This document shows, in pieces, positions 1,840 to 28,880 of a stretch of DNA of 64,000 bases. The DNA is from Patescibacteria group bacterium (GTDB lineage Bacteria; Patescibacteriota; Minisyncoccia; UBA6257; UBA9933): assembly GCA_038057075.1 (NCBI GenBank), contig JBBUDV010000006.1, forward strand, positions 2,216 to 66,215, in the 5' to 3' direction. The translations under genes and the position numbers were made by a program. The notes under the pieces were generated by a model. It saw nothing but the letters and a program-made list of their open reading frames with translations. It searched no databases and was not told the origin of the DNA. The number at the start of each line of letters is the position of its first letter. Position 1 is the first letter of the stretch.

Positions 1840-3084
1840 ATGGCTGATAAACTCCAAAAAATAAAAGTAGAAGAAGAACTTAAGCGCGGAGCAGAGGTCT
1901 CAATTATTAGTCTTGTTGATTCATTGATTGAAAACGGCTATCATAGCCGCGCTTCGGATATTCATATAGATCCCGAAGAAAAACGGGTAAGGGTAAGATT
2001 AAGAATAGACGGCATTTTAAATGATGCGTTTATTCTACCTAAAGACATTCAATCCGAGGTTATAACGAGAATTAAGGTGCTTTCCGGACTTAGAACCGAT
2101 GAGCATCAAGCGGCTCAAGACGGCCGTTTTAGAACCGAAATTGAAGGCGGCGGGCCTATTGATCTTCGTGTCTCCATAGCTCCCACTTATTACGGCGAAA
2201 ATGCGGTAATGCGCCTTCTTATGGAAAAAGAAGAAAAATTTACTTTGGAAACATTGGGATACAACGAAAGAGACAGAGGAATAATAATGAAAGCCATTAA
2301 AAATCCTTACGGGATGATTCTGGCAACCGGCCCCACCGGTTCCGGAAAAACAACCACGCTTTACACGATTCTGAAAATTTTAAACACCAAAGAGGTCTCA
2401 ATAATTACGATTGAAGACCCCATAGAATATTCCCTTGAAGGCATTGACCAGATTCAGGCTAATACCAGAACCGGACTGACTTTTGCCACGGGTTTGCGTT
2501 CCATTTTGCGGCAAGACCCCAATATAATTATGGTCGGAGAAATTAGAGACGAAGAAACCGCGAGAATAGCCGTGAATGCGGCTTTGACCGGACATCTTTT
2601 GCTTTCAACTCTGCATACGAACGACGCCCCCACTACCCTGCCTCGTTTACTTGATATGCAGATTGAACCGTTTTTGATTGCTTCCACGGTTAATATCGCC
2701 ATCGGACAACGTTTAGTAAGAAAAATTTGCGAGAATTGCAAAGTTAACAAAGCCATTTCCACGGATGAGTTAAAAACATTATCCGAGTCCGTATCAACTG
2801 AAATTCTTTCTAAATATGAAAAAATCACGAAAAGCAAAAATTTTTCCAAAGGAAGCGGCTGTGAAAAATGTAATGACACCGGTTATCAGGGAAGAATCGG
2901 AATTTATGAAGTTTTGGAAGTTGACGATGATATAAGAAAGGCGGTTATCAGAAAAGCGGATGCCGGCGAAATCAGGGATATCGCCATAAAAAATGGAATG
3001 ACTACAATGATAGGAGACGGATTTAAAAAGGCCTCGGAAGGAATAACAACCATTGAGGAAATATTAAGAGTTATACATGAATAA
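1840..3084 (+). CDS. pilB: Type IV pilus / type II secretion assembly ATPase (PilB/GspE family), short form
   Basis: Walker A GPTGSGKTTTL, Asp/His boxes, and the C-terminal CxxC...CxxC zinc motif of GspE ATPases. Confidence 0.9.
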   Translation: MADKLQKIKVEEELKRGAEVSIISLVDSLIENGYHSRASDIHIDPEEKRVRVRLRIDGILNDAFILPKDIQSEVITRIKVLSGLRTDEHQAAQDGRFRTEIEGGGPIDLRVSIAPTYYGENAVMRLLMEKEEKFTLETLGYNERDRGIIMKAIKNPYGMILATGPTGSGKTTTLYTILKILNTKEVSIITIEDPIEYSLEGIDQIQANTRTGLTFATGLRSILRQDPNIIMVGEIRDEETARIAVNAALTGHLLLSTLHTNDAPTTLPRLLDMQIEPFLIASTVNIAIGQRLVRKICENCKVNKAISTDELKTLSESVSTEILSKYEKITKSKNFSKGSGCEKCNDTGYQGRIGIYEVLEVDDDIRKAVIRKADAGEIRDIAIKNGMTTMIGDGFKKASEGITTIEEILRVIHE

Positions 3085-3126
3085 ATAACCAACAACTAAT
3101 GACTAATAAAAATTGTAAGTTAATTT

Positions 3127-4188
3127 ATGACTAATTTATTTTTAAGAGTTTCCATTCAAGAAAAAATTCTTTTTGTAAAACATCTTGCCATGATGATTAA
3201 GGCCGGAATGTCTATCGTGGACAGTTTGAAAATGCTTAAGAAACAGGCGCGTTCAAAATCAATGGAAAAAATTTATGACCATCTTATTGCCGAAGTTTCA
3301 AACGGACAATTTTTATCAACTGCCTTGGAAAAGTTCAAAAATATTTTCGGCGACTTTGCCATAAACATCATACGAGTCGGAGAAGCCAGCGGAATTCTTT
3401 ATGAAAATTTGAATTATTTGGCGACGGAATTGACGAAAAAGAAAGAATTGCGCAAAAAGGTCGTTGGCGCCATGATTTATCCGATTATCATCATTATCGC
3501 GACTTTCGGCATCACCGGACTTTTAACCGTCTATATTTTTCCAAAAATTTTGCCGATATTTAAAAGTTTAAACGTAAAACTTCCGTTAAGCACCAAAATT
3601 CTCATTTCAGCCAGCGAATTTTTGATAAATTACGGAATTTACGCCATTTTTGGCGTCTTAGGATTGATTATTTTATTCTTTCTGTTTTTAAGAATCAGAT
3701 TAGTCCATTATTTTTTTGACAGATTGCTTTTGATGATTCCCCTTTTCGGCCAAATGTCTATAAATTACAATATGTCCAATTTTTGCCGCACGCTTGGATT
3801 GCTTCTGAAAAGCGACATTAAAGTTGTTGAGGCGGTTTCCATTACTGGAGACACTTTGAAAAATCTTGTTTACAAAAATGAACTGAAAAAAATCGCCGCG
3901 GACGTTACGAAAGGAGAAGAAATTTCCTTGCGGTTGGAGGAAAAGAAAAAATTATTTCCGCCTATGGTTTCGCAAATGGTGTCCATCGGAGAAAATACGG
4001 GCAATTTGAGCGAAACGTTGATTTATATTTCGGAATTTTATGAAAAAGAAGTTGATGATACCGCTAAAAATCTTTCAACTATTTTAGAGCCGCTGCTTAT
4101 GATTTTAATGGGATTAATCGTCGCTTTTATCTCGATTTCCATTATTACGCCAATTTATGAAGTCACTCAAGGACTTAATGTTAAATAA
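3127..4188 (+). CDS. pilC: Type IV pilus platform protein PilC/GspF
   Basis: 353 aa with T2SS-F domain architecture and three TM segments, immediately downstream of pilB. Confidence 0.85.
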   Translation: MTNLFLRVSIQEKILFVKHLAMMIKAGMSIVDSLKMLKKQARSKSMEKIYDHLIAEVSNGQFLSTALEKFKNIFGDFAINIIRVGEASGILYENLNYLATELTKKKELRKKVVGAMIYPIIIIIATFGITGLLTVYIFPKILPIFKSLNVKLPLSTKILISASEFLINYGIYAIFGVLGLIILFFLFLRIRLVHYFFDRLLLMIPLFGQMSINYNMSNFCRTLGLLLKSDIKVVEAVSITGDTLKNLVYKNELKKIAADVTKGEEISLRLEEKKKLFPPMVSQMVSIGENTGNLSETLIYISEFYEKEVDDTAKNLSTILEPLLMILMGLIVAFISISIITPIYEVTQGLNVK

Positions 4189-4624: not shown

Positions 4625-4760
4625 TCCCTCACCCTTCAAATACCGAAAACCCGAACATTTTACTTAAAAAACAAAGATTTAAAAATAAATGTTGATTTTA
4701 ATTTTGAAACGCAGAACTTGTAAAAGGTTTTATAAAATGCCGTATTTGAAGGGTGAGGGA
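4625..4760. mobile_element. IR-D family element copy 1 (18-bp terminal inverted repeats around ~100 bp AT-rich core)
   Basis: tccctcacccttcaaata (4625-4642) and tatttgaagggtgaggga (4743-4760). The left arm starts right after the upstream pilin stop codon. The right arm encodes YLKGEG of the next gene's prepilin leader, and that gene's ATG (4737) lies inside the element. Confidence 0.55.
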
Positions 4761-6107
4761 GGGCAAAGTATGGTGGAAATTTTGGTTGCTTTGACGATTT
4801 TCGTTTTAACCATCACGGCGGTTATTTTTCTTTCATCAGGAGGTCAATCGGTTTCAATTGATACCGAACTTAATAATCAAACAATTTACAAAGCCAAGGA
4901 GCAATTGGAAAACGCCCGGGCAACGGCAAAAAATAATTTTAGTTCTTTAGTTTCCGCTTCAAGCGCGGATAACGGATTTTTAAAAGAACTTATTGTGGAA
5001 AACCTCGGCGCTTATGAAAAAAAAGTTACAAGCAAAGTAAGTTGGCAAATAACGCCTTCGCGGACTCTTAAAACTGAACTTGCGACTATTATTTCCGATT
5101 GGAAAGGCGCAGTTGCGGTTGGCGGAGACACCGGCGGCGGCGGAATTTCCGGCGATTGGAAAAACCCCAGAACTTTAGGTTCTATTGATTTGGGTCCGGG
5201 AAATTCGGCAACCGGATTGGACGTTATTAATAAAATCGTCTATTTGTCAGCCGAGGCGTCTGACTCTAAAAAGCCGGATTTTTACATCGTTGATGCCACC
5301 GATGGAGAACATCCTTTTATTAAATCCAGTCTTAATACCGGCCCGGGCTTAAAAGCGTTGGACGTTGCCGGACAATACGCTTATCTGGCTAATAATAATG
5401 GAAACGCTCAATTACAAATTGTCAACGTAAGCGATCTTAATAATCCAATTTTGATTAAATCATATAAATTGCCGAATGTTTCTGGCGATGATGGAATCGC
5501 TCTAAGTATTTTTTACGTTGACTCAAAAATTTATCTTGGCATGAAAAAAATTGATGGTCCGGAATTTAATATTATTGATGTTTCTAATCCGAATAATCCA
5601 GTTTTGCTTGGCTCATATGAAATTAATGATAATGTTAATGATATTTATATAAACAGCAATCGCGCCTATCTGGCAACTGATTTAGGAAATGCAGGATTGA
5701 TTATTTTAGATGTTTCTAATTCGGCAAGCGTCAATCTTTTAGGACAAGCTTACTCTACGGATACTAATAGTGTTTTTAGTAATAATCCTTCGCTAACTTT
5801 TTTGAATCCGGGACAGGAATTTCGTATTGCCGACACCACCAATCCCAATTCAATTATTGATATAGGGTCAATCAATGTCGGCGATATAATCAATGATATA
5901 ACAAGCCGCGATTATTTGGCGTTTCTGGCAACTTCAAACAGCAACCGCAATTTCCAGATCGTTAATGTTTCTGATTCCGCTAATCCAACTTTATGGAGTT
6001 TTTTCAAGTTTCCTCAGGTGGCAACCGGCATAGATTTTGAAGATAATATCGTTTACGTTTCCATAAGAAGTAATGACGCGTTAAGAATCATAACGTCTTC
6101 TCTATAA
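4737..6107 (+). CDS. Pilin-like protein with prepilin leader fused to an LVIVD-repeat beta-propeller
   Basis: Leader MPYLKGEGG|QSMVEILVALTIFVL (Glu +5) followed by more than 6 LVIVD-type repeats (IVDATDG..., LQIVNVSDLNNP..., FNIIDVSNPNNP..., LIILDVSNSASV..., FQIVNVSDSANP...). The true start (M17 of the track ORF) lies inside the IR-D element. Confidence 0.6.
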   Translation: MPYLKGEGGQSMVEILVALTIFVLTITAVIFLSSGGQSVSIDTELNNQTIYKAKEQLENARATAKNNFSSLVSASSADNGFLKELIVENLGAYEKKVTSKVSWQITPSRTLKTELATIISDWKGAVAVGGDTGGGGISGDWKNPRTLGSIDLGPGNSATGLDVINKIVYLSAEASDSKKPDFYIVDATDGEHPFIKSSLNTGPGLKALDVAGQYAYLANNNGNAQLQIVNVSDLNNPILIKSYKLPNVSGDDGIALSIFYVDSKIYLGMKKIDGPEFNIIDVSNPNNPVLLGSYEINDNVNDIYINSNRAYLATDLGNAGLIILDVSNSASVNLLGQAYSTDTNSVFSNNPSLTFLNPGQEFRIADTTNPNSIIDIGSINVGDIINDITSRDYLAFLATSNSNRNFQIVNVSDSANPTLWSFFKFPQVATGIDFEDNIVYVSIRSNDALRIITSSL

Positions 6108-6579: not shown

Positions 6580-6956
6580 GAAACGGTTATCTGGCTTTAA
6601 CTTCAATAATAATAATTTCAATTTTGGTTTTAACCATCTCATTATCGCTTGAATTTTCCGGTTTTTTCGCCAGATTTAACATATTGGATTCGGAATATAA
6701 AGAAAGAAGTTTGGCTTTGACCGATGCTTGCGCTGACAAAGCGCTTTTAAAAATTGTCCAAAATGCTTCTTATCTGGGCAACGAGACAATAATAATCGGC
6801 GATAATTCATGTAATATCTTGCCGATAGAAACACTCGGCAACCAAAAAACAATTAAAACCTCCGCCGTTTATCAAAATGCCGCCTCTAACATCAAAGTAA
6901 TTATAAATATGACTGATTTTTCAATAATTTCATGGGAAGAATTGCCGGAATTCTAA
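6576..6956 (+). CDS. Hypothetical membrane-anchored protein in the pilin operon
   Basis: 126 aa with an N-terminal TM and a 4-nt overlap with the upstream pilin gene. No canonical G/E+5 signal. Confidence 0.35.
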   Translation: MRNGYLALTSIIIISILVLTISLSLEFSGFFARFNILDSEYKERSLALTDACADKALLKIVQNASYLGNETIIIGDNSCNILPIETLGNQKTIKTSAVYQNAASNIKVIINMTDFSIISWEELPEF

Positions 6957-7041
6957 TGTGCCCGGTGTGGATAACTTTAATTATTTCCCGGAAGTTTATG
7001 TTATAATTAAAAAAATTAAAAGGTCGAGGGAAACGAAAAAA

Positions 7042-7075
7042 GGTTTACCCCGTTAGAAATTTTTAAAAACGGGTT
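7042..7075. repeat. IR-C family element, compact hairpin copy, upstream of the pilin gene
   Basis: ggtttaccccgttagaaattttt aaaaacgggttaatcc. Shares the CCCCGTTAGAAAT core with 12000-12086 and 14429-14488. Confidence 0.5.
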
Positions 7076-7123
7076 AATCCTTGATTAAAATCTATCAGTT
7101 AAATCAGGAATTAAATAAAAATT

Positions 7124-7591
7124 ATGATTACTAAAATTTCTAAGCGGGGTTTTACATTAATTGAACTTTTGGTTGTTATCGGAATTATCGCGATTTTAGC
7201 CGCAGTTGTTATTGTCGCTTTAAACCCCGCAAGACAATTCGCGCAAGCCAGAAACACTCAAAGATGGAGTAATGTTAACACTGTTTTAAACGCAGTTGGA
7301 CAAAGAATGGCGGACAATAAAGGCGTTTTTGAAACCGCGTGCGCCGCAGGCGTCATTCCGACAGCTTCAACCACCATGGCAAACGGCGTTGGCAATTACG
7401 ACATAGCTCCTTGCATTATTCCGACTTATGTTTCAACGATGCCGTTTGACCCCAGAGCGACTGGCGCTCATTACACGAGCAACGCAGATTACAACGCCGG
7501 CTATAAAATACAAAGGGATGCGACAACAGGAAGAATAACAATCAGCGCTCCGGAAGCGGAACTTGAAGAACCTATCTCGGTAACCAGATAA
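7124..7591 (+). CDS. Type IV pilin (major pilin candidate)
   Basis: MITKISKRG|FTLIELLVVIGIIAILAA, followed by a strong terminator. Confidence 0.75.
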   Translation: MITKISKRGFTLIELLVVIGIIAILAAVVIVALNPARQFAQARNTQRWSNVNTVLNAVGQRMADNKGVFETACAAGVIPTASTTMANGVGNYDIAPCIIPTYVSTMPFDPRATGAHYTSNADYNAGYKIQRDATTGRITISAPEAELEEPISVTR

Positions 7592-7627
7592 TAAAAAAAA
7601 GAAGCCCTTCAAGGGCTTCTTTTTTAG
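7592..7627 (+). terminator. Rho-independent terminator after the pilin gene
   Basis: Stem gaagccctt/aagggcttc followed by a T-run. Confidence 0.7.
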
Positions 7628-7643
7628 CATTCTAATTATTAAT

Positions 7644-8411
7644 TCATGATTTCTGACTCATAATCGCCGCGCCAAGCGCCGGGCCCAATTCCCCTAACCT
7701 ACTTTTAATAATAAGTGTTTTTTTGGCAAGCGGCGGCGCTATATATTTTTTAGCGACAGATCTTACGGTTTTTAAATCAACTTTTCCGGTTAAAATTCCT
7801 CCGCCGCCCAAAATCACAATATCGGGATTTAAAACGTTTATCAAATTGGCAACTCCAATGCCGATAATTTTGCTCCGGTCGCCGTATTTTTGAAACGCTT
7901 TTTTGGCGGCTGATTCTTCAAAAGTTTTATTGCCGTCAATTATAATATGTCCAACTTCGCCGGCGCTGTTGCTACTTCCTGAATAAATTTCACCGTCTAT
8001 CATTATTCCTGAACCTATGCCCGTGCCAATAGTTATAGCCAAAACATTTTTTTTGTTTTTAGCCGCTCCCAGTGTTGCCTCAGCCCGTAAAAAACAACGG
8101 CAATCGTTATCTATTTTAACTTTAGAATGGAATTTAGCGAAAAATTTTTTAGCATTCCATTTGCCCATAAACGGAAATTTTGATGTTTTTCCTAAAAATC
8201 CATATTCCCCGACCACGCTGGCCAACCCAACGCCAACACCGCTAATTTTATTTTTTCCGACAAGTTTTACGATTTCCGTATCCAAAGTTTTCAAAAAAGC
8301 CGTCTTGCTTTTAGGCGTTAAAACAATAAATTTTGACAAGATTTTTTTTGAGACGGCATCAACCAAAACTCCCCTGATTTTAGTGCCGCCTATATCAAGA
8401 CCGATATACAT
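7644..8411 (-). CDS. ROK family sugar kinase/regulator-like protein
   Basis: N-terminal LDIGGTKIR and the ROK glycine-rich signature GIGSGIMIDGEIYSGSSNSAGEVGH. Confidence 0.75.
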   Translation of the reverse strand: MYIGLDIGGTKIRGVLVDAVSKKILSKFIVLTPKSKTAFLKTLDTEIVKLVGKNKISGVGVGLASVVGEYGFLGKTSKFPFMGKWNAKKFFAKFHSKVKIDNDCRCFLRAEATLGAAKNKKNVLAITIGTGIGSGIMIDGEIYSGSSNSAGEVGHIIIDGNKTFEESAAKKAFQKYGDRSKIIGIGVANLINVLNPDIVILGGGGILTGKVDLKTVRSVAKKYIAPPLAKKTLIIKSRLGELGPALGAAIMSQKS

Positions 8412-8426
8412 AAATTTAACTTATAA

Positions 8427-9410
8427 CTAAAAAAGTTTTTTTGCTTCGTTCCAAAATTCAGGATGGTTTTGTTTAGTCTTCAGCCAATACCACCATTCAA
8501 CACCCCATAAATACGCCTCGGAAAAACCAACATCGCGCGCGTATTTAATATTATCATTAAATTGAACAAAATCCATTGATTTAAATTGGTCTTCAAGCGG
8601 AGTTTCATAAATCATTTTCGGACCCCAAGGTTCGGCTTGGAGTTCGGAAACGATTATCGGCTTTTGGGGATAAAACAATCTCACAATATTGGCTTTTAGC
8701 CAAAAAAATTTCGGCGGCAGCGGATATTTGAAATAACCCGTATATTTATTCCATACGATTTTATACATCGTGGTGCCGAAAACGTCGGCGCGCTTGGCGG
8801 CTCTGACCCAAACGCTCAATTCCCCGCTGTCGGTAATCATAATTTTATGGTTCGGGTCCAATTTCCTGACCAAACTGATTTCTTTATCTAAAAAATCAAC
8901 GTCTAATTTCGGGCACTCGCCAAAAACCAAAAACGGTTCGTTTTCAACCTGCCATAAATAAAGATTCGGAATGTTTTTATATTTTAAAACCGTTTTTTCA
9001 ATGTAGTTTAAAACGCGTTCGTCAACGGCTTTTTTGTCCAAACCATCCGTCCACTTCGGTTCGTTGCATTCGGGCCAGCGCGGAGATTTGCGTCCTATTG
9101 CCAAAATAAGTTTCACGTTTCTTTTGCCTGCTTCATTTATCATCCAATCGTAATCGTCAAAAACATTTTCATCTTCATTGGGCTGAATGTCTCGCCAATA
9201 AACCGGCAAACGCAAAGATTTCGGCTTTAATTCGTCCAGAATCGCCAGATATGCTTTTTTCCAATTCAGTCCCATATCAATGGCAAAAGGTTTTGAAAAA
9301 GCCACTCCCCATTCAATATCTTTTGTTATTTCCGACGGCTGTCGTGTTAAATAAACAAATCCGAAATACAAAACAGCGAACAAGATTATTAAAAATAAAA
9401 TTTTTTTCAT
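8427..9410 (-). CDS. Secreted clan GH-A-like glycoside hydrolase (TIM barrel)
   Basis: Signal/TM anchor; NEP acid/base motif (WQVENEPF); candidate nucleophile in VSELQAEPWG. Confidence 0.5.
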   Translation of the reverse strand: MKKILFLIILFAVLYFGFVYLTRQPSEITKDIEWGVAFSKPFAIDMGLNWKKAYLAILDELKPKSLRLPVYWRDIQPNEDENVFDDYDWMINEAGKRNVKLILAIGRKSPRWPECNEPKWTDGLDKKAVDERVLNYIEKTVLKYKNIPNLYLWQVENEPFLVFGECPKLDVDFLDKEISLVRKLDPNHKIMITDSGELSVWVRAAKRADVFGTTMYKIVWNKYTGYFKYPLPPKFFWLKANIVRLFYPQKPIIVSELQAEPWGPKMIYETPLEDQFKSMDFVQFNDNIKYARDVGFSEAYLWGVEWWYWLKTKQNHPEFWNEAKKLF

Positions 9411-10303
9411 AATTTAATGAATAAAACAACAAATCCCAAGCTTATCAATAAAATGGCGATAATTTTTTGGATTATTACCGGCGTTGATATTTTTTCTTCA
9501 AAAATAGCCGGATATTTTATTGAAAGCGCGGTGACAATTAAAAAAATAAAAGCGTATCGCGTTCCTTCCAGGGCGCTGACCAAAGCCACGCTTCCCAGAT
9601 AAATCGCGTAATTTACGAGAATAAAAGCGATGCCTCCGATAATTTTATTTATTATCACCAAAGCCCCCCATTTGAATTTAAGCCCTCGCGAAGTTTTAAA
9701 AATTAATTCGCGGTTTTTGAAAACAATAAGCAAAAATATCGCTCCTAAAAAGCTCCCCAATCGCTGCCAGATAAAACCGGAAATAAAAGGCTGATTTAAA
9801 AAAATGTATTTTGTCAAAATATAAAAAATGGCAAAAAGAAATGCGGCAAAAATTGATTTTTTAAAATGCCCAAATTTATAATTTTTATCGTTTTTTTCAG
9901 CGGAAATCAAAACGCCGCCGCATACCAATAATCCAAAAGCGATAAATTGAAACAAATTTAAATGCGCGCCGAGAATAAAATAACTTATTATTAAAACAAA
10001 AATCGGAGTAAAACCGCCTATAACCGGAATAATTCGCGATGTCTCCCCTTCTCTTAAAACGCTGTAAAAAACTATTAAAGCGGCAAGAAAAATAATTCCC
10101 GCTAAAATTGAAATTAAAAACTGGCTAAAACCGGGCCAGTTTAAACCGAAAGGCGCAAGAAATAAAACAAAAATGCTTAAAATCCCGCTGTAAAAACCGA
10201 GAACAATTGGATGTTGAATCGGTTTTTTTAAAATAAATTTATCTATTACCGAGCTAAAAGCATTTATAAAATAGGCAACGATTGAAATTAAAACCCAATT
10301 CAT
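9407..10303 (-). CDS. EamA/DMT-family transporter
   Basis: 298 aa with about 10 TM segments in a duplicated 5-TM arrangement. Confidence 0.55.
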   Translation of the reverse strand: MNWVLISIVAYFINAFSSVIDKFILKKPIQHPIVLGFYSGILSIFVLFLAPFGLNWPGFSQFLISILAGIIFLAALIVFYSVLREGETSRIIPVIGGFTPIFVLIISYFILGAHLNLFQFIAFGLLVCGGVLISAEKNDKNYKFGHFKKSIFAAFLFAIFYILTKYIFLNQPFISGFIWQRLGSFLGAIFLLIVFKNRELIFKTSRGLKFKWGALVIINKIIGGIAFILVNYAIYLGSVALVSALEGTRYAFIFLIVTALSIKYPAIFEEKISTPVIIQKIIAILLISLGFVVLFIKL

Positions 10304-10310
10304 AATTCAA

Positions 10311-10400
10311 TTACATTTGGCAGCGAGACCGCAAAAAAAACTTAGTTTTATTTGCGGCGAGCGAACCAAATGAAAAAAATGTTACGCTCCGTAACATTTA
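10311..10400. repeat. Repeat family A copy 1 (~90 bp, two-hairpin intergenic element)
   Basis: ttacatttggcagcgagaccgcaaa...tttgcggcgagcgaaccaaatgaaaaaaatgttacgctccgtaacattt. Lies 8 nt upstream of the DMT gene start. Confidence 0.8.
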
Positions 10401-10425
10401 TTATACCATTATCGCCATTACGCTA

Positions 10426-11685
10426 TTATAATGCTTCTTTTGTATAGATATTTGAAGCATTCCAAAGCATAAATCCGCTATATCTTTGTCCCAAAGAATC
10501 CGAAACTGCCTTTATTTGGGCTTTTACCATTTCAAGCGAGTAAATGGCTCCAAGGTTAAAATCCTGCAACCAAGGCCTTATTTTGGCTGTTATTCGAGGT
10601 TTTACAGCCCCAGAAGGCGTTTCTTTAGTGGAAGTTGCGTTTTTCAGATCTTCTTGAGTTTCAAAATTAATCAATCTTTTAACAGCTTCGTCAATGGAAT
10701 ATTTTACTATCTCGTAAGGATATTTAGCTGGATTGGAAAAATTTAAAGTCCCGGGATAATAATGTGATGGATAAACCATTGGACAGACAAAATCAAAATA
10801 TTTATAAGCGTCTTCCAATATCTGGCCTATGCCTAAATCGTCTTTTTGAATTGTCACCAATCCGAAAATATCCGCTGAAATTTTTGTTTCAGGCAACGAT
10901 TCACGAAGATATTTAAAAAATCCGTTGATTATTTTTTTCTTTGGAGTTTTTTGGTCCCAAAAAGAAAAATACATTGAACTCATGTCGCCGTCGGACGGAA
11001 ATCTGATGTAATCAAAATTTATTTCGTCAAAACCGCGGCTTGCGGCGTCTTTGGCAATGGCAATGTTATAATCCCAAACTTCTTTTGAAGTCGGGTCAGA
11101 CCATGCCAAACCTTTTTTGTCATACCAAGTCGGATACGGCGGCGTTGAAGAAGCGTTGGATTTTTTCTTTACCGCCAAATCGGGTCTGGCTTTAGCCAAA
11201 GCCGGGTCCTGAAAAACAGTGATTCTGGCAATGGCATAGATACCGTTATCGTGGAGTTTTTTGAGCAGAGCGTTTATTTTTTTGATTTTAACCTCTTTCG
11301 CCCCGTATTCGTCAATTTGAGGTAAATTTATTTCGTAAGAAACATAACCGGAATAATCTTTAATATCTATAACAACCGCGTTAAGGCCTGTTGTCTTTTT
11401 CAAATTAATTATTTCATTGATTTTCTTTTCACTGCCCCCTGACCACCCGGTCAGATAAACGGCTTTTATTATTTGCGGCGGGTCAATCAGAGGTTTTTGC
11501 GGCTCAATATCAATATTAAGCGGCTTTTTAATTTTTTCCTCCGCAACGGCATTTTTATCGGATTGTGCTATCTGGCTTGATTCTATTTGAAAATTTGTTT
11601 TCTTTGAAAAAACAAAAAAACCGATCCCGATAACCGGCAAAATTAAAGCAAATGAAATTAAATTTATTTTTTTTGAACGCTTCAA
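10426..11685 (-). CDS. DUF4015-type putative glycoside-hydrolase-like lipoprotein
   Basis: KAVYLTGWSGGSEKKINEIINLKKTTGLNAVVIDIKDYSGY resembles the PF13200 core. N-terminal signal/TM. Confidence 0.5.
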   Translation of the reverse strand: MKRSKKINLISFALILPVIGIGFFVFSKKTNFQIESSQIAQSDKNAVAEEKIKKPLNIDIEPQKPLIDPPQIIKAVYLTGWSGGSEKKINEIINLKKTTGLNAVVIDIKDYSGYVSYEINLPQIDEYGAKEVKIKKINALLKKLHDNGIYAIARITVFQDPALAKARPDLAVKKKSNASSTPPYPTWYDKKGLAWSDPTSKEVWDYNIAIAKDAASRGFDEINFDYIRFPSDGDMSSMYFSFWDQKTPKKKIINGFFKYLRESLPETKISADIFGLVTIQKDDLGIGQILEDAYKYFDFVCPMVYPSHYYPGTLNFSNPAKYPYEIVKYSIDEAVKRLINFETQEDLKNATSTKETPSGAVKPRITAKIRPWLQDFNLGAIYSLEMVKAQIKAVSDSLGQRYSGFMLWNASNIYTKEAL

Positions 11686-11686
11686 A

Positions 11687-12235
11687 TCAATTGATTTTTA
11701 ATAGTTCAACTTCAAAAACAAGCGTGGCGCCGGGCGGTATCGCTCCTGGAACGCCTCTTTCGCCATATCCCAATTCGGACGGAATAGTCAATTTGCGTTT
11801 TTCCCCGACTTTCATGCCCAACAATCCCTGTTCCCATCCTTGGATTACTTGTCCCGCGCCGAGAACAAAAGAAAACGGCTGTCCCCTGTCAATGGAAGAA
11901 TCAAATTTTTCCCCGTCTGTTAATGTACCAATGTAATGGGCAGTAATCTTATCGCCATTTTTGGCGCCTTCACCCTCGCCTTGCTTTAAAATTTCTACAT
12001 TTACCCCGTTAGAAATAATTTGTTTTATATTATTACCTTCGAGATTATTATTGTTGTTTGTATTTGAATTTCTAACGGGGTTTACCATAAGTTTGTTTTG
12101 ATTATTTTCGACTTTTTCAGAGTTAAAATCAATTTTCTTGCTGAAATAATAACCGCCTACAAATACGGCTATTACCAGAATCGCGGTTAAAAATAAATTT
12201 AAAAAATTTTTATTATTCATATAATTTATTGCCAT
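11687..12235 (-). CDS. FKBP-type peptidyl-prolyl cis-trans isomerase, membrane-anchored
   Basis: C-terminal FKBP domain ([15 protein letters not shown]...[20 protein letters not shown]...[11 protein letters not shown]). The N-rich linker carries the IR-C element in frame. Confidence 0.85.
12000..12086. mobile_element. IR-C family element inserted in frame in the FKBP gene
   Basis: Arms tttaccccgttagaaat / atttctaacggggttta flank 52 bp of AT-rich DNA. The element is 87 bp (29 codons) and encodes the low-complexity linker [28 protein letters not shown]. Confidence 0.55.
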
Positions 12236-12543
12236 TCACTGAACCCGTGTTCTAAATTATATACGTCTTGAAATCCCATAGGCGCCATAATTTTTTCCGC
12301 GCAAGCGCGGCTGCGGCCGCCTTTTTCGCAATAAACCAGATATTTTTTATTCTTATCCAATTTGTCAATTTTGTTCTGAAAATCCGGAGAATACATGTCT
12401 AAATTAACCGCATTTTCAAGATGTCCGCTGTCAAATTCTTCTTTCGCGCGTACGTCTAAAATTATAAAATCGGCGTTATTTTTATTTCCCTCAATAAGTT
12501 TTTTTGCCGCTTCAGAAGAAATATTTTTAATTTGTTGTTCCAT
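12226..12543 (-). CDS. Rhodanese-domain sulfurtransferase
   Basis: 105 aa with active-site Cys in YCEKGGRS. Confidence 0.8.
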
Positions 12544-12570
12544 CTCTGGAAAATTATAAATGATTTTCTA

Positions 12571-12610
12571 AAAAATAAAAAGCCCCGCCAGTCCATGAAC
12601 TGGCGGGGCG
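12571..12610 (-). terminator. Rho-independent terminator
   Basis: Stem gccccgccagt/actggcggggc with an A-run on plus, giving a U-run on minus. Confidence 0.5.
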
Positions 12611-12694
12611 AATACTACATCCTTCTTTGCAATAGGTAATTGCTCTCAAAAAATATCGCGGACGCATCATAAGCAATACCTCCTTTCATCTTAA

Positions 12695-12877
12695 TTATTT
12701 TTTCGGTTGGCATTGCAGGCAAACTACAGTTGGACATTTTAATATATTTTCTTCGCTTAAAATACCGATATTAGGTTCCCAAACATCATTAATTTTAATC
12801 GCATTGCAACCCGCGCATTTTATGATATTTTCTGCAATATTATTTATTACTTCAGGTCCGCCTTTTATGGTCCGCAT
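12695..12877 (-). CDS. Small Cys-rich protein (putative zinc ribbon), unknown function
   Basis: MRTIKGG... with CAGC...C...CxxC. A GGAGAGGGAG Shine-Dalgarno precedes the chosen ATG. The ORF-track start is 18 nt further upstream. Confidence 0.4.
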   Translation of the reverse strand: MRTIKGGPEVINNIAENIIKCAGCNAIKINDVWEPNIGILSEENILKCPTVVCLQCQPKK

Positions 12878-12935
12878 AATTTTCTCCCTCTCCAAATTAT
12901 AAATTTGCTAACATAAGAATATCATATTCTAATGT

Positions 12936-13757
12936 TTATGCAATAATTTTGACAAATCTCCACTTTTTATACTGATCTTTGTAAAATATCCATTTTTTAT
13001 ATTTTAATTGCTTTAAAATTTTCCCGATTAATGGTTTTTGAAATGAGTCAAATTCCATCCATATTTGACAGGTTGGTTTAATATATTGAACCGTTTGTTT
13101 TAAGAATTTTTTAATTATTTTAAGTCCGTCTTTTCCCGAGAATAATGCCTTTTTTGGTTCGTATTTTAAAACCTCCTTCTGAACCCTGTTTTTCCGTTTT
13201 AGAGCGACATACGGCGGATTTGCCAAAATAAAATCGTATTTATCTTTCAATAAATTTAAAGAGTGAACGGCTGTATCAATTATATTTTTACCGCTCGGGT
13301 TAACCCGAGCGGTAAAAATATCTGCCCGTATCACGCGATAACGAGATTTGTTGATTCTATTTATTTTCAAATTTAATTTTATCTGCTTTATCAAATTAGA
13401 ATCAATTTCATAAAAATCTACTTTTGAATTTTTTACATTTTTCAGGACAGAAATTCCCACACAGCCGGAACCGGCGAAAACATCCGCTATCTTTAAAGAT
13501 AGCGGCTTAGCATTCACGGAATAATCCAAAATTTTCGCAATTACTTTTTCAACCCAAAATTCCGTTTCCGGACGTGGAATCAACGGCTTAAAAGAAAGGT
13601 CTATTTCACAGTTTAAAAACGGTTTCCATCCTACGATATAATCAACCGGCTCGCCTTTTTTCAACCGTTTTATGTCATTTTCAATTTCCGGTCGGAGTTT
13701 GCCGCCATATTTATCTTTCAAAATCCAACCGATTTCTTTATAAAAATTTTTGGACAT
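12936..13757 (-). CDS. prmC: Release factor glutamine N5-methyltransferase PrmC/HemK
   Basis: SAM motif DVFAGSGCVGISV and the NPPY catalytic motif FILANPPYV. Confidence 0.8.
   Translation of the reverse strand: MSKNFYKEIGWILKDKYGGKLRPEIENDIKRLKKGEPVDYIVGWKPFLNCEIDLSFKPLIPRPETEFWVEKVIAKILDYSVNAKPLSLKIADVFAGSGCVGISVLKNVKNSKVDFYEIDSNLIKQIKLNLKINRINKSRYRVIRADIFTARVNPSGKNIIDTAVHSLNLLKDKYDFILANPPYVALKRKNRVQKEVLKYEPKKALFSGKDGLKIIKKFLKQTVQYIKPTCQIWMEFDSFQKPLIGKILKQLKYKKWIFYKDQYKKWRFVKIIA
13283..13320. mobile_element. Palindrome-B (38-bp perfect palindrome) inside the prmC coding sequence
   Basis: tatttttaccgctcgggttaacccgagcggtaaaaata encodes IFTARVNPSGKNI between the DIF and NPPY motifs, where PrmC normally has a much shorter spacer. 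An identical copy lies at 17863-17900. Confidence 0.6.
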
Positions 13758-13846
13758 TTTACATATTATAAATGCCTTAATGATAATTATTCAACGGCAA
13801 AATAAAAAGCGCCCCAACAAATAGCGGAACGCAGAATTTAAATTAA

Positions 13847-14344
13847 CTAGATAATCACGACGCATTTTTCATTTTTTCTTTTGCTGGCTCCAAATTCGCC
13901 CAAATACGCCATTGGACCGGCAAAATGAGGATAAGAAAATTTTTTGGCGATTTCTCTTAATTCTTCAATGTCGCAGTTATAAACAAACAACCTTAAACGC
14001 CTTAACATTTTTTCCGCGACATATTCCTCTCCGAAAAATCTAATATGGTCCTTTCCCCAATGTTCGCAATAATCGACGTTGTTTTTGTCCAAAGTCTTTA
14101 TTTCAATATCTACTAATTTCCCGTCGATTACCAGCTTATGCCTACATATCCACTGGATTAGATTGCCGTCAGAACCGACATGTTCATAATCGGTAATTCC
14201 GTATTTTTCGGGATTTTCCATCAATGTCTCAAAAAAATTAATAGCAATGGCTAAAATTATTGATTCATCATGGAGCCACTGAACCGTCAAATTTTTAATC
14301 ATTTCTTTCAAATCGCTTTCTTTGAATAAAAATAATTTTTTCAT
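13847..14344 (-). CDS. Hypothetical protein
   Basis: 165 aa ORF with no recognisable motif. Confidence 0.3.
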   Translation of the reverse strand: MKKLFLFKESDLKEMIKNLTVQWLHDESIILAIAINFFETLMENPEKYGITDYEHVGSDGNLIQWICRHKLVIDGKLVDIEIKTLDKNNVDYCEHWGKDHIRFFGEEYVAEKMLRRLRLFVYNCDIEELREIAKKFSYPHFAGPMAYLGEFGASKRKNEKCVVII

Positions 14345-14428
14345 TCTCCTCTCCTTTATAACTGATTTTTTATTTTCAAAGAACCAAACTATTTTAAAAT
14401 ATTAATTTAAAAAATTATAGCTTGTCAA

Positions 14429-14488
14429 TCCCGTTAGAAATACATACAAAATTTAATAAATTTTTACTGCCCTGGATTTCTAACGGGG
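14429..14488. repeat. IR-C family element, intergenic copy
   Basis: tcccgttagaaat - 34 bp - atttctaacgggg. Confidence 0.55.
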
Positions 14489-14492
14489 TTAA

Positions 14493-14532
14493 ATAAAAAA
14501 CAGCCCTTTGATAAACTCGGGGCTGTTTTTTA
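14493..14532 (-). terminator. Bidirectional rho-independent terminator downstream of the RRM gene
   Basis: aaaaaaaacagccc...ggggctgtttttt. Confidence 0.6.
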
Positions 14533-14549
14533 TTTGTTGGTCTATATCT

Positions 14550-14897
14550 TTACCATTCCGCTTTTCTGTGTCCGCCGCCAAATCCTCCTCTGCCTCCACT
14601 GCCTCCGCTACCTCCGCGGAAACCTCCTTCACCTCTCGGTGCTCTGGGTTCCATGGGGCGAGCTTCGTTGACGGTCCAAGTCCTTCCATCAACTTCTTTT
14701 CCGTTGAACATTTCAATAGCTTTATTCGCTTCATCGTCATTGGACATTTCCACAAAACCGAATCCTTTGGAACGGCCTGAAAATTTGTCTTTAATGACGG
14801 TCGCGGATTCAACCGCGCCTGCCTGCGAAAAAGTATTTTTCAAAATGTCTTCTGAAGTGTCATAAGACAAATTGCCAACGTACAATTTCTTTGCCAT
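14550..14897 (-). CDS. RRM-type RNA-binding protein with Gly/Arg-rich tail
   Basis: RNP-2 LYVGNL and RNP-1 KGFGFVEM, with a C-terminal RGG/GGS tail. Confidence 0.85.
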   Translation of the reverse strand: MAKKLYVGNLSYDTSEDILKNTFSQAGAVESATVIKDKFSGRSKGFGFVEMSNDDEANKAIEMFNGKEVDGRTWTVNEARPMEPRAPRGEGGFRGGSGGSGGRGGFGGGHRKAEW

Positions 14898-15065
14898 TTA
14901 TTTGATTATTTCAGTAGGGCGACCCTCTCTAGTTACCCCTTCAAAAGCGCTACTAAACGAGCCCTTGCTAAAAGAAACTAACCGAGAAACCTACCCTCCA
15001 ATTTTTCTTAAATTGGATAAAAATATTATAAATTAAATGTAAATGAAAAGCAACTCTAATGGGGT

Positions 15066-16700
15066 TTACTGACCGAGTAATGATTTAAATAAATTAATCA
15101 CTTTACCCAATAATGACTCGTTTGCCGAAGACGGAGGAGGCAACGTTTCCCCGCTTGGAGGTTGCGCGGGCAACATCATGCCTCCGGGATATTGCTGCGG
15201 CTGTATTTGTATTACTCGCTGTTGTATGTTTTTTAAACATTCCTCGGGATTTTCTGATTTAGAGCAAAATTCTTTACATTCCTCGGGACTACTACAAGGC
15301 GCTTCTGCCGTTCCTTGAGGAAACATTTGAGGCGTTTGCCCCTCTACCTCTACTCCGGGCATCATTATATTTTGAGGGATGCCGGGCATTTGAGGCGCTT
15401 GCATCATATTGCCGGGCTGTTTAGAACCGTATTGTTCAAAACAACTTTTGGCTTTCTGTATAAATTCGCCTTTCTCTTCATCTTTCATAACGCCAGATTG
15501 CAATCTGCCGACGGCATCCTCGCCTAAAGTTGTTCTCAAACATTCCTTCATTTCTTGCGACATTGATTCAAATGAAGGCATACCTGTCGGACGACCGTCG
15601 CCACCGGGGCCCATCTGGCCTCCACCAACGCCTGGCGCGCCCATTACGCTTTCAAAACATGCCCGCATTTTATCTCCAATATCTCTTGGAGGCATAATGG
15701 AACCGCTTTTAAGTTTTTCCATCATTTCCGCGCCGATTGTGGAATTAAGGCATTCAATCACTTTTGGCGGCGCCTGGTTCAATATTTCTTGAAATTTTTG
15801 TTTGCCTCCTTCCATTCTTTGAATATCTTCTTGTTTTATAAAGCCGTATTCTTTCGCAAAATTAAAACAGGATTCTTGGTTTTCGGGACTGCTGCAAAAT
15901 GCCTCGCATTGTTCTTTACCGCGGCAATTGCCCGGACCTTTGCCTCCGGTTTTACGCGCCATTTCAGCTTCTTCAGCAGACATAAATCCGGCCGCCTCGG
16001 CGAATTTCATACATTCTTCAAAATGACTTTCCTCGGAACAATAAACGTCGCATTCCTTCTTGCCGCGGCACTGCGGCGGCTTTGCGCCTTTCTTAATGGC
16101 TTCTAAAACCTTTTGCGATTCTTGCTTTTCGTTTTCATCCATTAATCCGGCCGCCTGCGCGAAAATTATACACTCTTCCATATGGTCAACGCTGCCGCAG
16201 TATAAGTCGCATGATTTTTTATTGCCGCAAGAAGGCGGTTTTACGCCTTGTTTTATAGCAGCTCTCACTTTTTTAGCTTCATCTAATTCTTTTGGAGGCA
16301 ATATGTTGTTTTTTTCGGCAAATGTCACACATTCGTCTATATGGGAAATTTCATCGCAATATTTTTCACAGGAATCCTTTGTCGCGCAATTTCCAGGCCC
16401 TTTGCCGGCTGCTAAAAACTTTCTGGCGACATTAATTTTTTCTTGGCTCATTAAATTGTTCTTTTGGGCGAAATCCAAACACTTTTCCCTGTTTGCCGGC
16501 TTATCGCAATAAGCCCTGCAAGCAATTTCATTTTGGCAATTGCCCAATTCCGTAATAGGATATTGGATATTCGCCGCGACGCTTATGCCTGCGCCGGAAT
16601 CGGTTTGCGCCAGCGCGTTGCCGATTAAAATAACCGAAAATATAATTCCAAAACTTAAAACAATTGCGCTAAGATATTTTGTATTCATAATATTATTCAA
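15066..16700 (-). CDS. Secreted cysteine-rich tandem-repeat protein with Gly/Pro/Met/Gln-rich region
   Basis: Signal peptide, then about 6 copies of a ~45-aa module C-x4-5-C-x3-C-x7-8-C (e.g. GNCATKDSCEKYCDEISHIDECVTFAEKNN). Confidence 0.5.
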   Translation of the reverse strand: MNNIMNTKYLSAIVLSFGIIFSVILIGNALAQTDSGAGISVAANIQYPITELGNCQNEIACRAYCDKPANREKCLDFAQKNNLMSQEKINVARKFLAAGKGPGNCATKDSCEKYCDEISHIDECVTFAEKNNILPPKELDEAKKVRAAIKQGVKPPSCGNKKSCDLYCGSVDHMEECIIFAQAAGLMDENEKQESQKVLEAIKKGAKPPQCRGKKECDVYCSEESHFEECMKFAEAAGFMSAEEAEMARKTGGKGPGNCRGKEQCEAFCSSPENQESCFNFAKEYGFIKQEDIQRMEGGKQKFQEILNQAPPKVIECLNSTIGAEMMEKLKSGSIMPPRDIGDKMRACFESVMGAPGVGGGQMGPGGDGRPTGMPSFESMSQEMKECLRTTLGEDAVGRLQSGVMKDEEKGEFIQKAKSCFEQYGSKQPGNMMQAPQMPGIPQNIMMPGVEVEGQTPQMFPQGTAEAPCSSPEECKEFCSKSENPEECLKNIQQRVIQIQPQQYPGGMMLPAQPPSGETLPPPSSANESLLGKVINLFKSLLGQ

Positions 16701-17286: not shown

Positions 17287-17321
17287 TTCATCGCCTCCTT
17301 TTATCCGATTCTTACATTTGG

Positions 17322-17404
17322 CAGCGAGTCCACAAAGGGAACTTTAATTTCATTTGCGGCGAGCGAACCAAATGAAAAAATGTTACGCTCTGTGGCATTT
17401 TTTA
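17322..17404. repeat. Repeat family A copy 2
   Basis: ttacatttggcagcgagtccacaaagg...tttgcggcgagcgaaccaaatgaaaaaatgttacgctctgtggcatttttt. Confidence 0.8.
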
Positions 17405-17547
17405 TTGAATTTTAATTATTGGAACTAAAAATAGAATATCACTTAAATACTATTTTGTAAAGTGTTTTACTTTTTGCGCAAAAAGTTCGGCGCAAAAAAA
17501 GGCCCCGACAAAATGTCAGAGCCAAAGCGTTAAAACCGAAGTCTGGA

Positions 17548-17779: not shown

Positions 17780-17862
17780 GTATTTTAAAACATCATTATT
17801 CGCTTTTATGGAACTTTAATAATTATAGCGCAATTTGTCGTTTTGTGAATAACCTTAAATGA

Positions 17863-17900
17863 TATTTTTACCGCTCGGGTTAACCCGAGCGGTAAAAATA
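17863..17900. repeat. Palindrome-B copy 2, intergenic, terminator-like
   Basis: Identical 38-bp palindrome tatttttaccgctcgggttaacccgagcggtaaaaata, 6 nt after the CAP gene stop. Confidence 0.7.
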
Positions 17901-22732: not shown

Positions 22733-23158
22733 CTATTTCAAATTAACTATATAGGTTTTGATAAATTTTTCTATTGCCAATACAGTTTCGGTTTTTAATT
22801 TTGGGTTTGATTCCGCCACCCATTTGGCAAAATTATAAAGTTCTTGATTATCAACTTCCAACCATTTTTTGTTTTTGTGTAAAAAATAAAAAAGTGTCAT
22901 CATGGCAATCCGTTTATTTCCATTTTTAAACGGATGGTTTTTAACCATTAAATAAAATAATACCGACACTTTCCCAATAAATCCTTTATATAACGGCTTG
23001 CCGCCGAAAGTTTGGAATGGCGCGATTAAACAACTTTCTAAAATATTAGGATAACGCGAACTAAAATCAGGAATTGGCTCATCCCATGCCATCATTTCTT
23101 TTGCCAACCAATAAGCGACATATTCAACTTGAATGATTGAAATTATTTTTATTTTCAT
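22733..23158 (-). CDS. Doc/Fic-family toxin, copy 1
   Basis: Doc-type motif HPFKNGNKR. Confidence 0.7.
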   Translation of the reverse strand: MKIKIISIIQVEYVAYWLAKEMMAWDEPIPDFSSRYPNILESCLIAPFQTFGGKPLYKGFIGKVSVLFYLMVKNHPFKNGNKRIAMMTLFYFLHKNKKWLEVDNQELYNFAKWVAESNPKLKTETVLAIEKFIKTYIVNLK

Positions 23159-23338
23159 TATTCTTTTCCTAATAATTTCAAAGTTTCGCCATATTCCTTG
23201 ATGGTTTTTTTAACGGCTTTTTCAATTTCTCGTTTTTTATCTTCAGTTAAAACCTCTCCCAAAACATCCGGCAAATTTTTTTTATTAATCATAAAATTGC
23301 GACCGATTTTTTGGGCCTTAATTTTACCGGACTTGATC
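22755..23338. repeat. Large direct repeat arm 1 (doc + 3' part of the HTH gene)
   Basis: About 584 bp near-identical to 26076-26659; the flanks have diverged. Confidence 0.85.
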
Positions 23339-23412
23339 TTTTTAAACACAGCTACCCGGCTGATACCCAAAAGCTTTGCCACCTCAATTGTGGAAAACAA
23401 TTTTTTATTCAT
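23158..23412 (-). CDS. Excisionase-family HTH DNA-binding protein (putative antitoxin/regulator), copy 1
   Basis: STIEVAKLLGISRVAVFKKIKSGKIKAQKIGRNFMI. Confidence 0.6.
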   Translation of the reverse strand: MNKKLFSTIEVAKLLGISRVAVFKKIKSGKIKAQKIGRNFMINKKNLPDVLGEVLTEDKKREIEKAVKKTIKEYGETLKLLGKE

Positions 23413-26479: not shown

Positions 26480-26659
26480 TATTCTTTTCCTAATAATTTC
26501 AAAGTTTCGCCATATTCCTTGATGGTTTTTTTAACGGCTTTTTCAATTTCTCGTTTTTTATCTTCAGTTAAAACCTCTCCCAAAACATCCGGCAAATTTT
26601 TTTTATTAATCATAAAATTGCGACCGATTTTTTGGGCCTTAATTTTACCGGATTTAATA
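26076..26659. repeat. Large direct repeat arm 2
   Basis: Near-identical to 22755-23338, offset 3321 bp. Confidence 0.85.
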
Positions 26660-26736
26660 TTCTTAAATACCGCTACTCGACTAATACCTAACAATTTAGC
26701 GACTTCAATTGTAGATAAAAACTGTTTCCTTATCAT
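26479..26736 (-). CDS. Excisionase-family HTH protein, copy 2
   Basis: N-terminus diverged (MIRKQFLSTIEVAK...); the rest is identical to copy 1. Confidence 0.6.
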   Translation of the reverse strand: MIRKQFLSTIEVAKLLGISRVAVFKNIKSGKIKAQKIGRNFMINKKNLPDVLGEVLTEDKKREIEKAVKKTIKEYGETLKLLGKE

Positions 26737-28873: not shown

Positions 28874-28880
28874 AAGATAA

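Follow-up and report, generated by a model that had tools for sequence, protein, structure and literature searches.

The 64-kb window analysed here (the whole stretch of DNA, 38% GC) lies on a Patescibacteria contig from Hainich groundwater, and the closest named relatives of its major pilin are found in Ca. Wolfebacteria. Among its genes, which include those for a type IV pilus, a membrane-anchored FKBP isomerase, and an RRM protein (Table 1), a 13-nt sequence and its reverse complement recur as paired arms that we refer to as IR-C. We read this 13-mer as the arms of three old, decaying copies of a very small, non-coding palindromic insertion element, at a probability of about 0.85. The copies are referred to below as the pilin, FKBP, and ORF165 copies.

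Table 1. Genes and IR-C features of the window, with positions counted from its first letter.
Feature	Position	Strand	Details
Type IV pilus operon	upstream of pilin
Major pilin	7124-7591	+
ROK kinase	within 7.6-11.7 kb
Glycosidases	within 7.6-11.7 kb
Membrane-anchored FKBP isomerase	11687-12235	-
Rhodanese	12226-12543	-
PrmC-like methyltransferase	12936-13757	-
ORF165	13847-14344	-
RRM protein	14550-14897	-
Pilin copy: relic of ancestral pilin start	7033-7047	+	ACGAAAAAAGGTTTA, formerly ATG AAA AAA GGT TTT A = MKKGF (comparison with L256 and L259)
Pilin copy: left flanking repeat	to 7047	+	TTTA, the last four bases of ACGAAAAAAGGTTTA
Pilin copy: left arm	7048-7060	+	CCCCGTTAGAAAT, in the 5' untranslated region downstream of the -10 box TATGTTATAAT
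Pilin copy: interior	7061-7135	+	contains a partial arm AAACGGG (7066-7072) and the present ATG (7124-7126)
Pilin copy: degenerate right arm	7136-7149	+	ATTTCTAAgCGGGG, codons I-S-K-R-G of the leader MITKISKRG|FTLIE
Pilin copy: right direct repeat	7150-7154	+	TTTTA
FKBP copy: complete, inside the FKBP gene	12000-12084	-	+ strand: TTTA, CCCCGTTAGAAAT (12004-12016), 51-nt interior, ATTTCTAACGGGG (12068-12080), TTTA
ORF165 copy: between the RRM-gene terminator and ORF165	14425-14492	-	TCAA, TCCCGTTAGAAAT (14429-14441), 34-nt interior, ATTTCTAACGGGG (14476-14488), TTAA

Arms and structure of IR-C

The 12-nt core of the arm, CCCGTTAGAAAT, occurs exactly 5 times in the window, at 7049, 12005, and 14430 on the forward strand and at 12068 and 14476 on the reverse strand. 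All 5 arms fall inside 8 kb, and the core is absent from the remainder of the 64 kb. Dinucleotide-preserving shuffles of the window gave a mean of 0.02 occurrences, and none of 100 shuffles reached 5, which confirms the over-representation of the 13-mer first noticed in a sequence-only reading of this DNA. The full 13-mer is exact at 7048-7060, 12004-12016, 12068-12080 (reverse strand; earlier placed at 12071-12083), and 14476-14488 (reverse strand), while the arm at 14429-14441 has one mismatch to it (TCCCG). A sixth, degenerate arm, missing from the earlier list, lies in the correct orientation 75 nt 3' of the arm at 7048-7060 and carries one inserted G.

This sixth arm is the true partner of the arm at 7048-7060. 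The sequence-only reading had paired the latter across a spacer of 0 (7048-7074), which turns out to rest on the internal partial arm; its spacer of 34 nt was right, and its spacer of 52 nt measures 51 nt. All 3 pairs (12004-12080, 14429-14488, and 7048-7060 with 7136-7149) form predicted hairpins with stems of 13-14 bp, folding energies of -19 to -24 kcal/mol, and z-scores of -2.9 to -5.4. A near-match overlapping the stop codon of a 544-aa gene, which had been counted as a further copy, has 3 mismatches in 14 positions (15052-15065), a level expected by chance. A 95%-identical strain carries a different hairpin element, IR-X, at the spot matching this near-match at 15054, which does not belong to IR-C.

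Across genomes, the unit opens with a 13-bp arm, (C/T)CCCGTTAGA followed by NNN, and closes with its inverted counterpart. The interior between the two is 2 to about 100 nt long and varies with the subfamily, and a 4-bp direct repeat of the insertion site, TNNA (CNNG in GC-rich genomes), flanks the unit. The outer part of the arm, YCCCGTTAGA, is invariant, and the inner part takes one of several forms (AGAGAC, AGAAGC, AGAAGT, AGATAA, ACAAAT) that is the same on both arms within a sub-lineage. Interiors are mostly unrelated, and some subfamilies have a conserved one. An Rfam scan at gathering thresholds returned tRNAs only, and an E-value scan of 6900-15200 gave only sub-threshold noise. The peptides encoded by in-frame copies matched no Pfam or NCBIfam entry, and no description was found when the literature was searched by the IR-C sequence and by topic.

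The position of one copy upstream of the major pilin gene, a classic target of phase variation, and the type IV pilus genes in the window call to mind an invertible segment, a transcription-factor operator, or a DNA-uptake sequence tied to these genes. An inverton would have to account for the ten other, independent assemblies of the same population, which are 100% identical to the window and show a single orientation without any inverted variant, and interiors of 2-3 nt cannot invert at all. Spacings between 2 and about 100 nt offer no operator geometry, and the distance to the promoter varies among the window copies, the sequence-only reading having named a fixed distance as the mark of a conventional regulatory site. 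Five arms per 64 kb is also far from the roughly one per kb of uptake sequences. We consider this group of explanations next to negligible.

Insertion, loss, and spread

The flanks of 125 copies were aligned, and those of 119 metagenome copies (244 together, all among the matches listed) were compared as well. In the alignment, a direct repeat appeared in a single register only: the four bases outside the 13-bp arm match in 76-84% of copies per position (n = 125). An exact 4-bp repeat surrounds 78 of the 125 copies, against 7.9 with shuffled partners, and 79 of the 119 metagenome copies, where 16.3 were expected, so that overall about 63-66% of the 244 copies carry one against an expectation of 6-14%. 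The commonest repeats are TGAA and TAAA, and rarely the repeat is 5 bp long. The two terminal bases (Y...R) are complementary to each other in 91% of copies and form part of the arm. A model with a six-bp duplication was rejected: the inner four positions match in about 80% of copies, whereas the two outer ones reach only 38% and 52%.

Related genomes show clean empty sites, which identify IR-C as an insertion. The FKBP copy is an in-frame insert of 81 nt (27 aa) between the membrane anchor and the FKBP domain, and a protein alignment showed that the FKBP orthologues P0005 and P0054 lack exactly these 27 residues (NPVRNSNT...IISNGV). At the DNA level, the empty site reads ATG|GTGAAT|ATA in L132 and L133, where the window has ATG GTAAA[C CCCG..51 nt..CGGG G]TAAAT GTA, a difference of 81 nt. 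The insert is also present in the 97%-identical L135. In L134, a decayed copy was found in which the left arm is mutated or lost and a 27-nt interior matches part of the window interior at 25 of 27 positions, and in P0010 the left arm is deleted. Being common to L135 and, in decayed form, to L134, the FKBP insertion is old.

The FKBP gene tree contains filled and empty alleles in both of its clades, ((window, L135 filled), L132 empty) and (L134 filled, L133 empty), and the filled alleles have homologous interiors. Therefore, either the insert has disappeared seamlessly on at least two occasions, or recombination has carried it from one lineage to another. Multiplication within genomes is seen in L070/L130 and L067/L100, where identical interiors are joined to unrelated flanks, and a subfamily of 40 nt with the 14-nt interior TCCAGCGGGGCATT occupies 32 independent loci. 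The preference of the sequence-only reading for a MITE-like (miniature inverted-repeat transposable element) hairpin over a fixed-spacing operator is thus borne out by the empty sites, the 4-bp flanking repeat, and the dispersal at unrelated loci.

On the minus strand, the arm of the ORF165 copy abuts the TTGACA -35 box (14428-14423) of a promoter-like sequence of ORF165 (TTGACA-18-TAATAT). A segment of 676 bp (13815-14490) that comprises ORF165 and this copy is absent from L135, which is otherwise 95-97% identical, and the edges of the indel are two T-tract repeats (TTTTTATTT). Next to this segment, the region of the PrmC gene (12556-13814) is only 76% identical between the window and L135, which suggests a local hotspot of recombination or replacement around 12556-14490.

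A segment that comes and goes with a hairpin at one edge could be an integron cassette, with IR-C as an attC-type or other site-specific recombination hairpin and ORF165 as one cassette. The stem boxes GTTAGAA/TTCTAAC around a variable centre loosely resemble the R boxes of attC, and polar, strand-specific behaviour is an attC property as well. The order of the boxes is the reverse, however: IR-C reads GTTRRR...YYYAAC and attC RYYYAAC...GTTRRRY. In addition, IR-C is flanked by direct rather than inverted repeats, most copies have no cargo, as is the case for the 81-nt FKBP insert, the ORF165 indel ends in T-tracts and not in arms, and neither an integrase nor a cassette array was found nearby in the Pfam table and scans of the window. 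An origin as a cassette boundary is therefore highly improbable.

To survey the distribution of IR-C, one representative genome per species was scanned with the pattern CCCGTTAGAAAT-N25-55-ATTTCTAACGGG. Hairpins with exact arms were found at at least 119 loci, in at least ten phyla. The hosts include many classes of Patescibacteria, Planctomycetota (Pirellulales, Phycisphaerae, Sedimentisphaerales), Omnitrophota, Elusimicrobia, delta- and gamma-proteobacteria, Thermodesulfobacteriota, Nitrospiraceae, KSB1, WOR-3, and Clostridia, under the taxon names of the metagenome-assembled genome records, and the loci have GC contents of 30-63%. When metagenomes were scanned for interiors of 0-24 nt, at least 120 contigs were found. 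True hairpin pairs were also present on 2 viral contigs. A separate scan of viral contigs with a single-arm 14-mer gave 120 loci, nearly all of them lone chance matches or an unrelated gene repeat with a spacing of 423 nt, and was set aside as uninformative.

Coding sequence, start codons, and the major pilin

Each arm contains a stop codon in only one of its three frames, CC CGT TAG on the left and AT TTC TAA on the right, and therefore an insert is either read through or lets a short upstream open reading frame (ORF) end at the TAA 7 nt before a rebuilt start codon. Interior lengths peak at multiples of 3 (27, 33, 36, 39, and 42 nt). About 40% of copies are in-frame inserts of long ORFs, at unrelated positions in genes such as those for PheT, ValS, and pilins.

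A second group of copies is found at gene starts. Of 125 copies, 36 (29%) abut the start codon of an ORF with 70 aa or more, and in 27 of these 36 an ATG is duplicated 6 nt to the left of the left arm, with A|TGAA|N as the target. The downstream start codon is rebuilt from the last base of the element (A or G) and TG. The upstream ORF either continues as an in-frame fusion (7 copies), runs as far as the right-arm TAA, 7 nt short of the rebuilt start (10), or terminates sooner within the element. In the subfamily with the 14-nt interior (metagenome loci L261-L379), about a third of the loci have the element directly upstream of a GGAGG site and a start codon; several neighbour genes of this subfamily are toxin-antitoxin genes. 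This enrichment at gene 5' ends may reflect a choice of target or the survival of tolerated insertions.

The major pilin gene of the window carries one copy, and the relatives of this gene point to its history. In L256, a Ca. Wolfebacteria sequence, the intact ATGAAAAAAGGTTTTACATTAATTGAA provides the short ancestral start, ATG AAA AAA GGT TTT ACA TTA ATT GAA (MKKGFTLIE). In L259, ATGAAAAATAAAGGTTTTA survives as a dead upstream ORF immediately 5' of the left arm. In the window, the corresponding relic ACGAAAAAAGGTTTA has ACG in place of the former ATG, and the ATG at 7124 is the earliest start codon available in the pilin frame. From this comparison it follows that the insertion took place at Gly|Phe in the major prepilin. 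It split the prepilin leader; the old ATG has decayed to ACG, and a new ATG lies in the interior of the element. The additional G in the right arm restores the frame, so that both the present start and the leader MITKISKRG are element-encoded. Leaders such as MINKISKRG share this origin, and the diverged leader MINKFSRQG of L257 is probably element-derived as well.

Similar events are found far from this lineage. Pilin-like genes of unrelated phyla in L325 (~10784-10831) and L059 (~3075-3153) carry IR-C in frame at the GFTLIE codons (..RGFTPLEMSNGDCKRKSLTGFTLIEL..). Prepilin leaders appear to be a recurrent insertion site; the codons GGT-TTT-AC contain the favoured GTTTAC/GTAAAC site. In the 5' untranslated region of the L256 pilin (~1410-1485), another hairpin with the arms CCCCGTCACTAAAAGAAA / TTTCTTTAGTGCGGGAC stands where the window has IR-C. 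These arms, too, start with YCCCG, a hint of a broader superfamily to which such hairpins belong.

The association with 5' ends raises the question whether IR-C is a functional RNA or DNA hairpin that has spread by its usefulness there, as a 5' stabiliser of transcripts, a translational regulator, an RNase III site, or a protein-binding site. The 29% of copies exactly at start codons and the placement of the 14-nt subfamily directly upstream of GGAGG-N-ATG would suit such a role, as would the outer stem sequence that is invariant across phyla. The pilin hairpin, moreover, encloses the ribosome-binding region and the AUG at -24 kcal/mol. The arms are not maintained in orthologues, however. The pilin arm of L258 has an uncompensated G>A change (CGGGG>CGAGG), that of L257 has been lost on the left, and the FKBP arms of L134 and P0010 have decayed likewise. 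Presence and absence differ among close relatives, the copies within coding sequences lie at unrelated positions, no Rfam family matches, and the window copies keep no constant distance to a promoter. A recognition hairpin under selection, which the sequence-only reading had offered as an alternative, is disfavoured by this uncompensated decay, and we judge a selected function of this kind to be quite unlikely. Rather, the 3 window copies look like neutral or exapted relics than like maintained regulatory sites.

Movement, related elements, and meaning

Among the 32 independent loci of the 14-nt subfamily, the flanking TAAA stands in one orientation at 25 and in the opposite orientation at none (25:0), giving flanks of a single polarity, GTAAAC...GTAAA. 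All five subfamilies that can be oriented by their interior show a polar repeat. Within the 14-nt subfamily, the repeat on the right varies less (30/32) than that on the left (25/32), which would fit a right copy that is part of the element and a left copy that represents the target. Short elements of 26-40 bp are common and have multiplied, the smallest measuring 26-29 bp. The fixed polarity, these small sizes, and the seamless losses together favour a strand-specific route through a single-stranded hairpin, possibly resembling that of IS200/IS605 or REP-RAYT (REP, repetitive extragenic palindrome), over a symmetric DDE reaction. The element would be non-autonomous and moved in trans by an enzyme, with a "peel and paste"-like insertion beside a tetranucleotide that matches its own 3' end.

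A classical MITE would be an internally deleted DDE insertion sequence, moved by a dimeric transposase that binds the 13-bp repeats and makes a 4-bp staggered cut. The terminal inverted repeats, the fixed 4-bp flanking repeat, and the subfamilies with a conserved interior are all as such an origin predicts. Among the minimal elements the repeat varies as if it were derived from the target, and bacterial MITEs such as Correia and ERIC commonly have unidentified parents. A two-fold symmetric transpososome acting on identical ends, however, should not yield a non-palindromic repeat in a single polarity (25:0), and duplexes of 26-40 bp, abundant here, would be too stiff for their ends to be paired. 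Nor was any insertion sequence with IR-C ends found in about 1.6 Mb of fetched loci. Of the MITE-like character proposed from the sequence alone, the insertion element thus stands, whereas the fixed polarity of the flanking repeat is unlike a classical symmetric MITE, and we regard the DDE explanation as doubtful.

A broader reading can be put forward only tentatively, at odds well short of even. In it, IR-C may stand for a class of ultra-small (26-105 bp) hairpin transposons that is pan-bacterial and so far undescribed. A strand-specific enzyme would move them in the form of single-strand hairpins and insert them in one polarity by a TNAA-type tetranucleotide. Such transposons would prefer gene 5' ends, namely ATGAA starts, positions a little 5' of the ribosome-binding sequence, and the codons GGT-TTT-AC in the GFTLIE motif of prepilins. 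They would excise seamlessly, leave translation intact, and occasionally donate a start codon or a leader, the window pilin being an example.

Several points weigh against the readings preferred here. The copies of the window's own lineage are common to several species and show no sign of recent movement, and the enrichment at 5' ends could reflect function rather than tolerance. Our scans demanded exact 12-nt arms, so that abundance and taxonomic spectrum were sampled rather than measured. Mis-binning of metagenome-assembled genomes could inflate the phylum count, yet GC content, repeat composition, and neighbour genes differ by taxon. A transposase with the same terminal inverted repeats, which the sequence-only reading had proposed as a check, was found neither in the fetched loci nor in the scanned parts of the window. 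Specifically, there was no transposase among the ORFs neighbouring solo arms, no candidate in an all-against-all clustering of 748 ORFs from 121 loci, and no transposase between arm pairs 0.5-4 kb apart in the fetched loci, where arms spaced like the ends of an insertion sequence were likewise lacking. The window had none in the Pfam table of 1.7-22 kb or in Pfam scans of 20 ORFs at 22.7-42.5 kb, the ORFs of about 33-64 kb being scanned in part. For the hairpin route in particular, a flanking repeat of fixed length is the classical signature of a DDE transposase, the minimal copies of 26-29 bp differ in their repeats and are too short to hold a guide sequence, and we know of no target duplication made by elements of the IS200/IS605 type. 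Because of these last two points, we treat the hairpin route as a candidate mechanism.

Between pairs of hairpins, the fetched loci contained only housekeeping or toxin-antitoxin genes, without RAYT/Y1 HUH or any other candidate. In the window, a small stand-alone GIY-YIG nuclease gene (28336-28638) adjoins tRNA-Asn and a copy of a 96-nt repeat described below; nothing ties this gene to the hairpin elements.

Compared with known systems, IR-C works like a MITE or a Rickettsia palindromic element (RPE), yet it fails defining features of MITEs, RPEs, REPs, IS200/IS605 elements, and attC sites. RPEs are selfish palindromic in-frame inserts and the sole in-frame type mentioned in a review of MITEs (PMC10969869). 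Both RPEs and IR-C are short palindromic selfish inserts that commonly lie in frame in unrelated housekeeping genes and are translated, and neither has a known mobilising enzyme. RPEs, however, measure about 100-150 bp, have conserved family sequences, and occur in Rickettsia only. IR-C measures 26-105 bp with only its 13-bp arms conserved, has a 4-bp flanking repeat, and is present in at least ten phyla with hosts other than Rickettsia, and its peptide matches neither NCBIfam nor Pfam. With bacterial MITEs (Correia/CREE, RUP, ERIC, Nezha) it shares terminal inverted repeats, a fixed flanking repeat, the non-coding and multi-copy state, presence/absence polymorphism, and effects on neighbouring genes. 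Known MITEs are lineage-restricted, usually 100-400 bp long, conserved in their interior, and directed to a palindromic target such as TA, whereas the interior of IR-C is arbitrary down to 2-3 nt, its repeat is polar and non-palindromic, and it crosses phyla and associates with start codons.

REP/REPIN-RAYT and IS200/IS605 (PATE) elements resemble IR-C as units defined by hairpins and possibly handled as single strands, whose enzyme may be a single gene elsewhere. IS200/IS605 elements enter their target in a single polarity, beside a short non-palindromic tetranucleotide, and leave it seamlessly, and the 14-nt subfamily matches this polarity. In contrast to REPs, IR-C has a variable flank, RTNNAY, in place of a GTAG/CGTC tag, and with about 40% of its copies inside ORFs it is not extragenic. 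In contrast to IS200/IS605, it forms a single hairpin from its own ends instead of separate left and right subterminal hairpins, and identical tetranucleotides flank it on both sides as an apparent 4-bp duplication. Fungal mitochondria also contain mobile hairpins, including the GC clusters of yeast, the double-hairpin elements of Allomyces, and the "byp" elements of Magnusiomyces. Like IR-C, these are small mobile palindromes (30-60 nt) that enter coding regions and have short direct repeats, and to our knowledge no enzyme has been identified for them either. They belong to organelles, are rich in GC and species-specific, and ribosomes skip over byps, whereas IR-C is bacterial, translated through or coupled, and spread across phyla.

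Other repeats of the window were noted alongside IR-C. The IR-X hairpins have arms of TCCCTCACCCTTCAAATAC, an interior of about 100 nt, and folding energies of -39 to -43 kcal/mol, and are found at 4625-4640/4745-4760 and 45771-45786/45884-45899. Part of the pseudopilin leader MPYLKGEGG is encoded within the right arm at 4745-4760, and the copy at 45771-45899 lies between pheS- and pheT-like genes with an arm abutting the ATG. L135 has an extra IR-X copy (5497-5629 of that sequence) just after the 544-aa gene that the window lacks, an insertion polymorphism. A perfect 40-nt palindrome, TATTTTTACCGCTCGGGTTAACCCGAGCGGTAAAAATA, occurs twice, at 13283-13322 and 17861-17900. The former lies within a 57-nt in-frame insert of the PrmC-like gene (..FTARVNPSGKNII..) that is absent from the orthologues of L133 and L134; apparently, this is a third type of palindromic insert compatible with coding. 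An intergenic repeat of about 96 nt and 67-91% identity is present at 10308-10403, 17310-17405, 28812-28874 (partial), 32020-32115, and 49106-49201, with nested inverted repeats and a terminator-like hairpin at its end (AAAAAATGTTACG..CGTGACATTTTTT), and may be a small RNA or another dispersed element. Finally, a Fic/DOC + HTH_17 gene pair is duplicated 3.3 kb apart (22733-23412 and 26057-26736), with a stretch of 300 nt that is 99% identical.

If the interpretation of IR-C given here is true, one tiny selfish element has colonised the compact genomes of many uncultured phyla, among them Patescibacteria, Omnitrophota, and Planctomycetota. It would have altered proteins and start sites, adding 9 to about 30 residues, and gene callers would mis-annotate false N-termini such as M..ISNGV.. 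or MNPVRN... Effects on expression are inferred here throughout. In the pilin gene of the window, selfish DNA has been exapted to provide a major surface protein with its start codon and signal peptide. IR-C copies can be used as presence/absence markers for tracking strains in groundwater communities. An element of 26-40 bp with a polar, non-palindromic repeat fits neither the textbook DDE nor the HUH scheme, and the enzyme of IR-C could reveal a new way of inserting short DNA at defined tetranucleotides.

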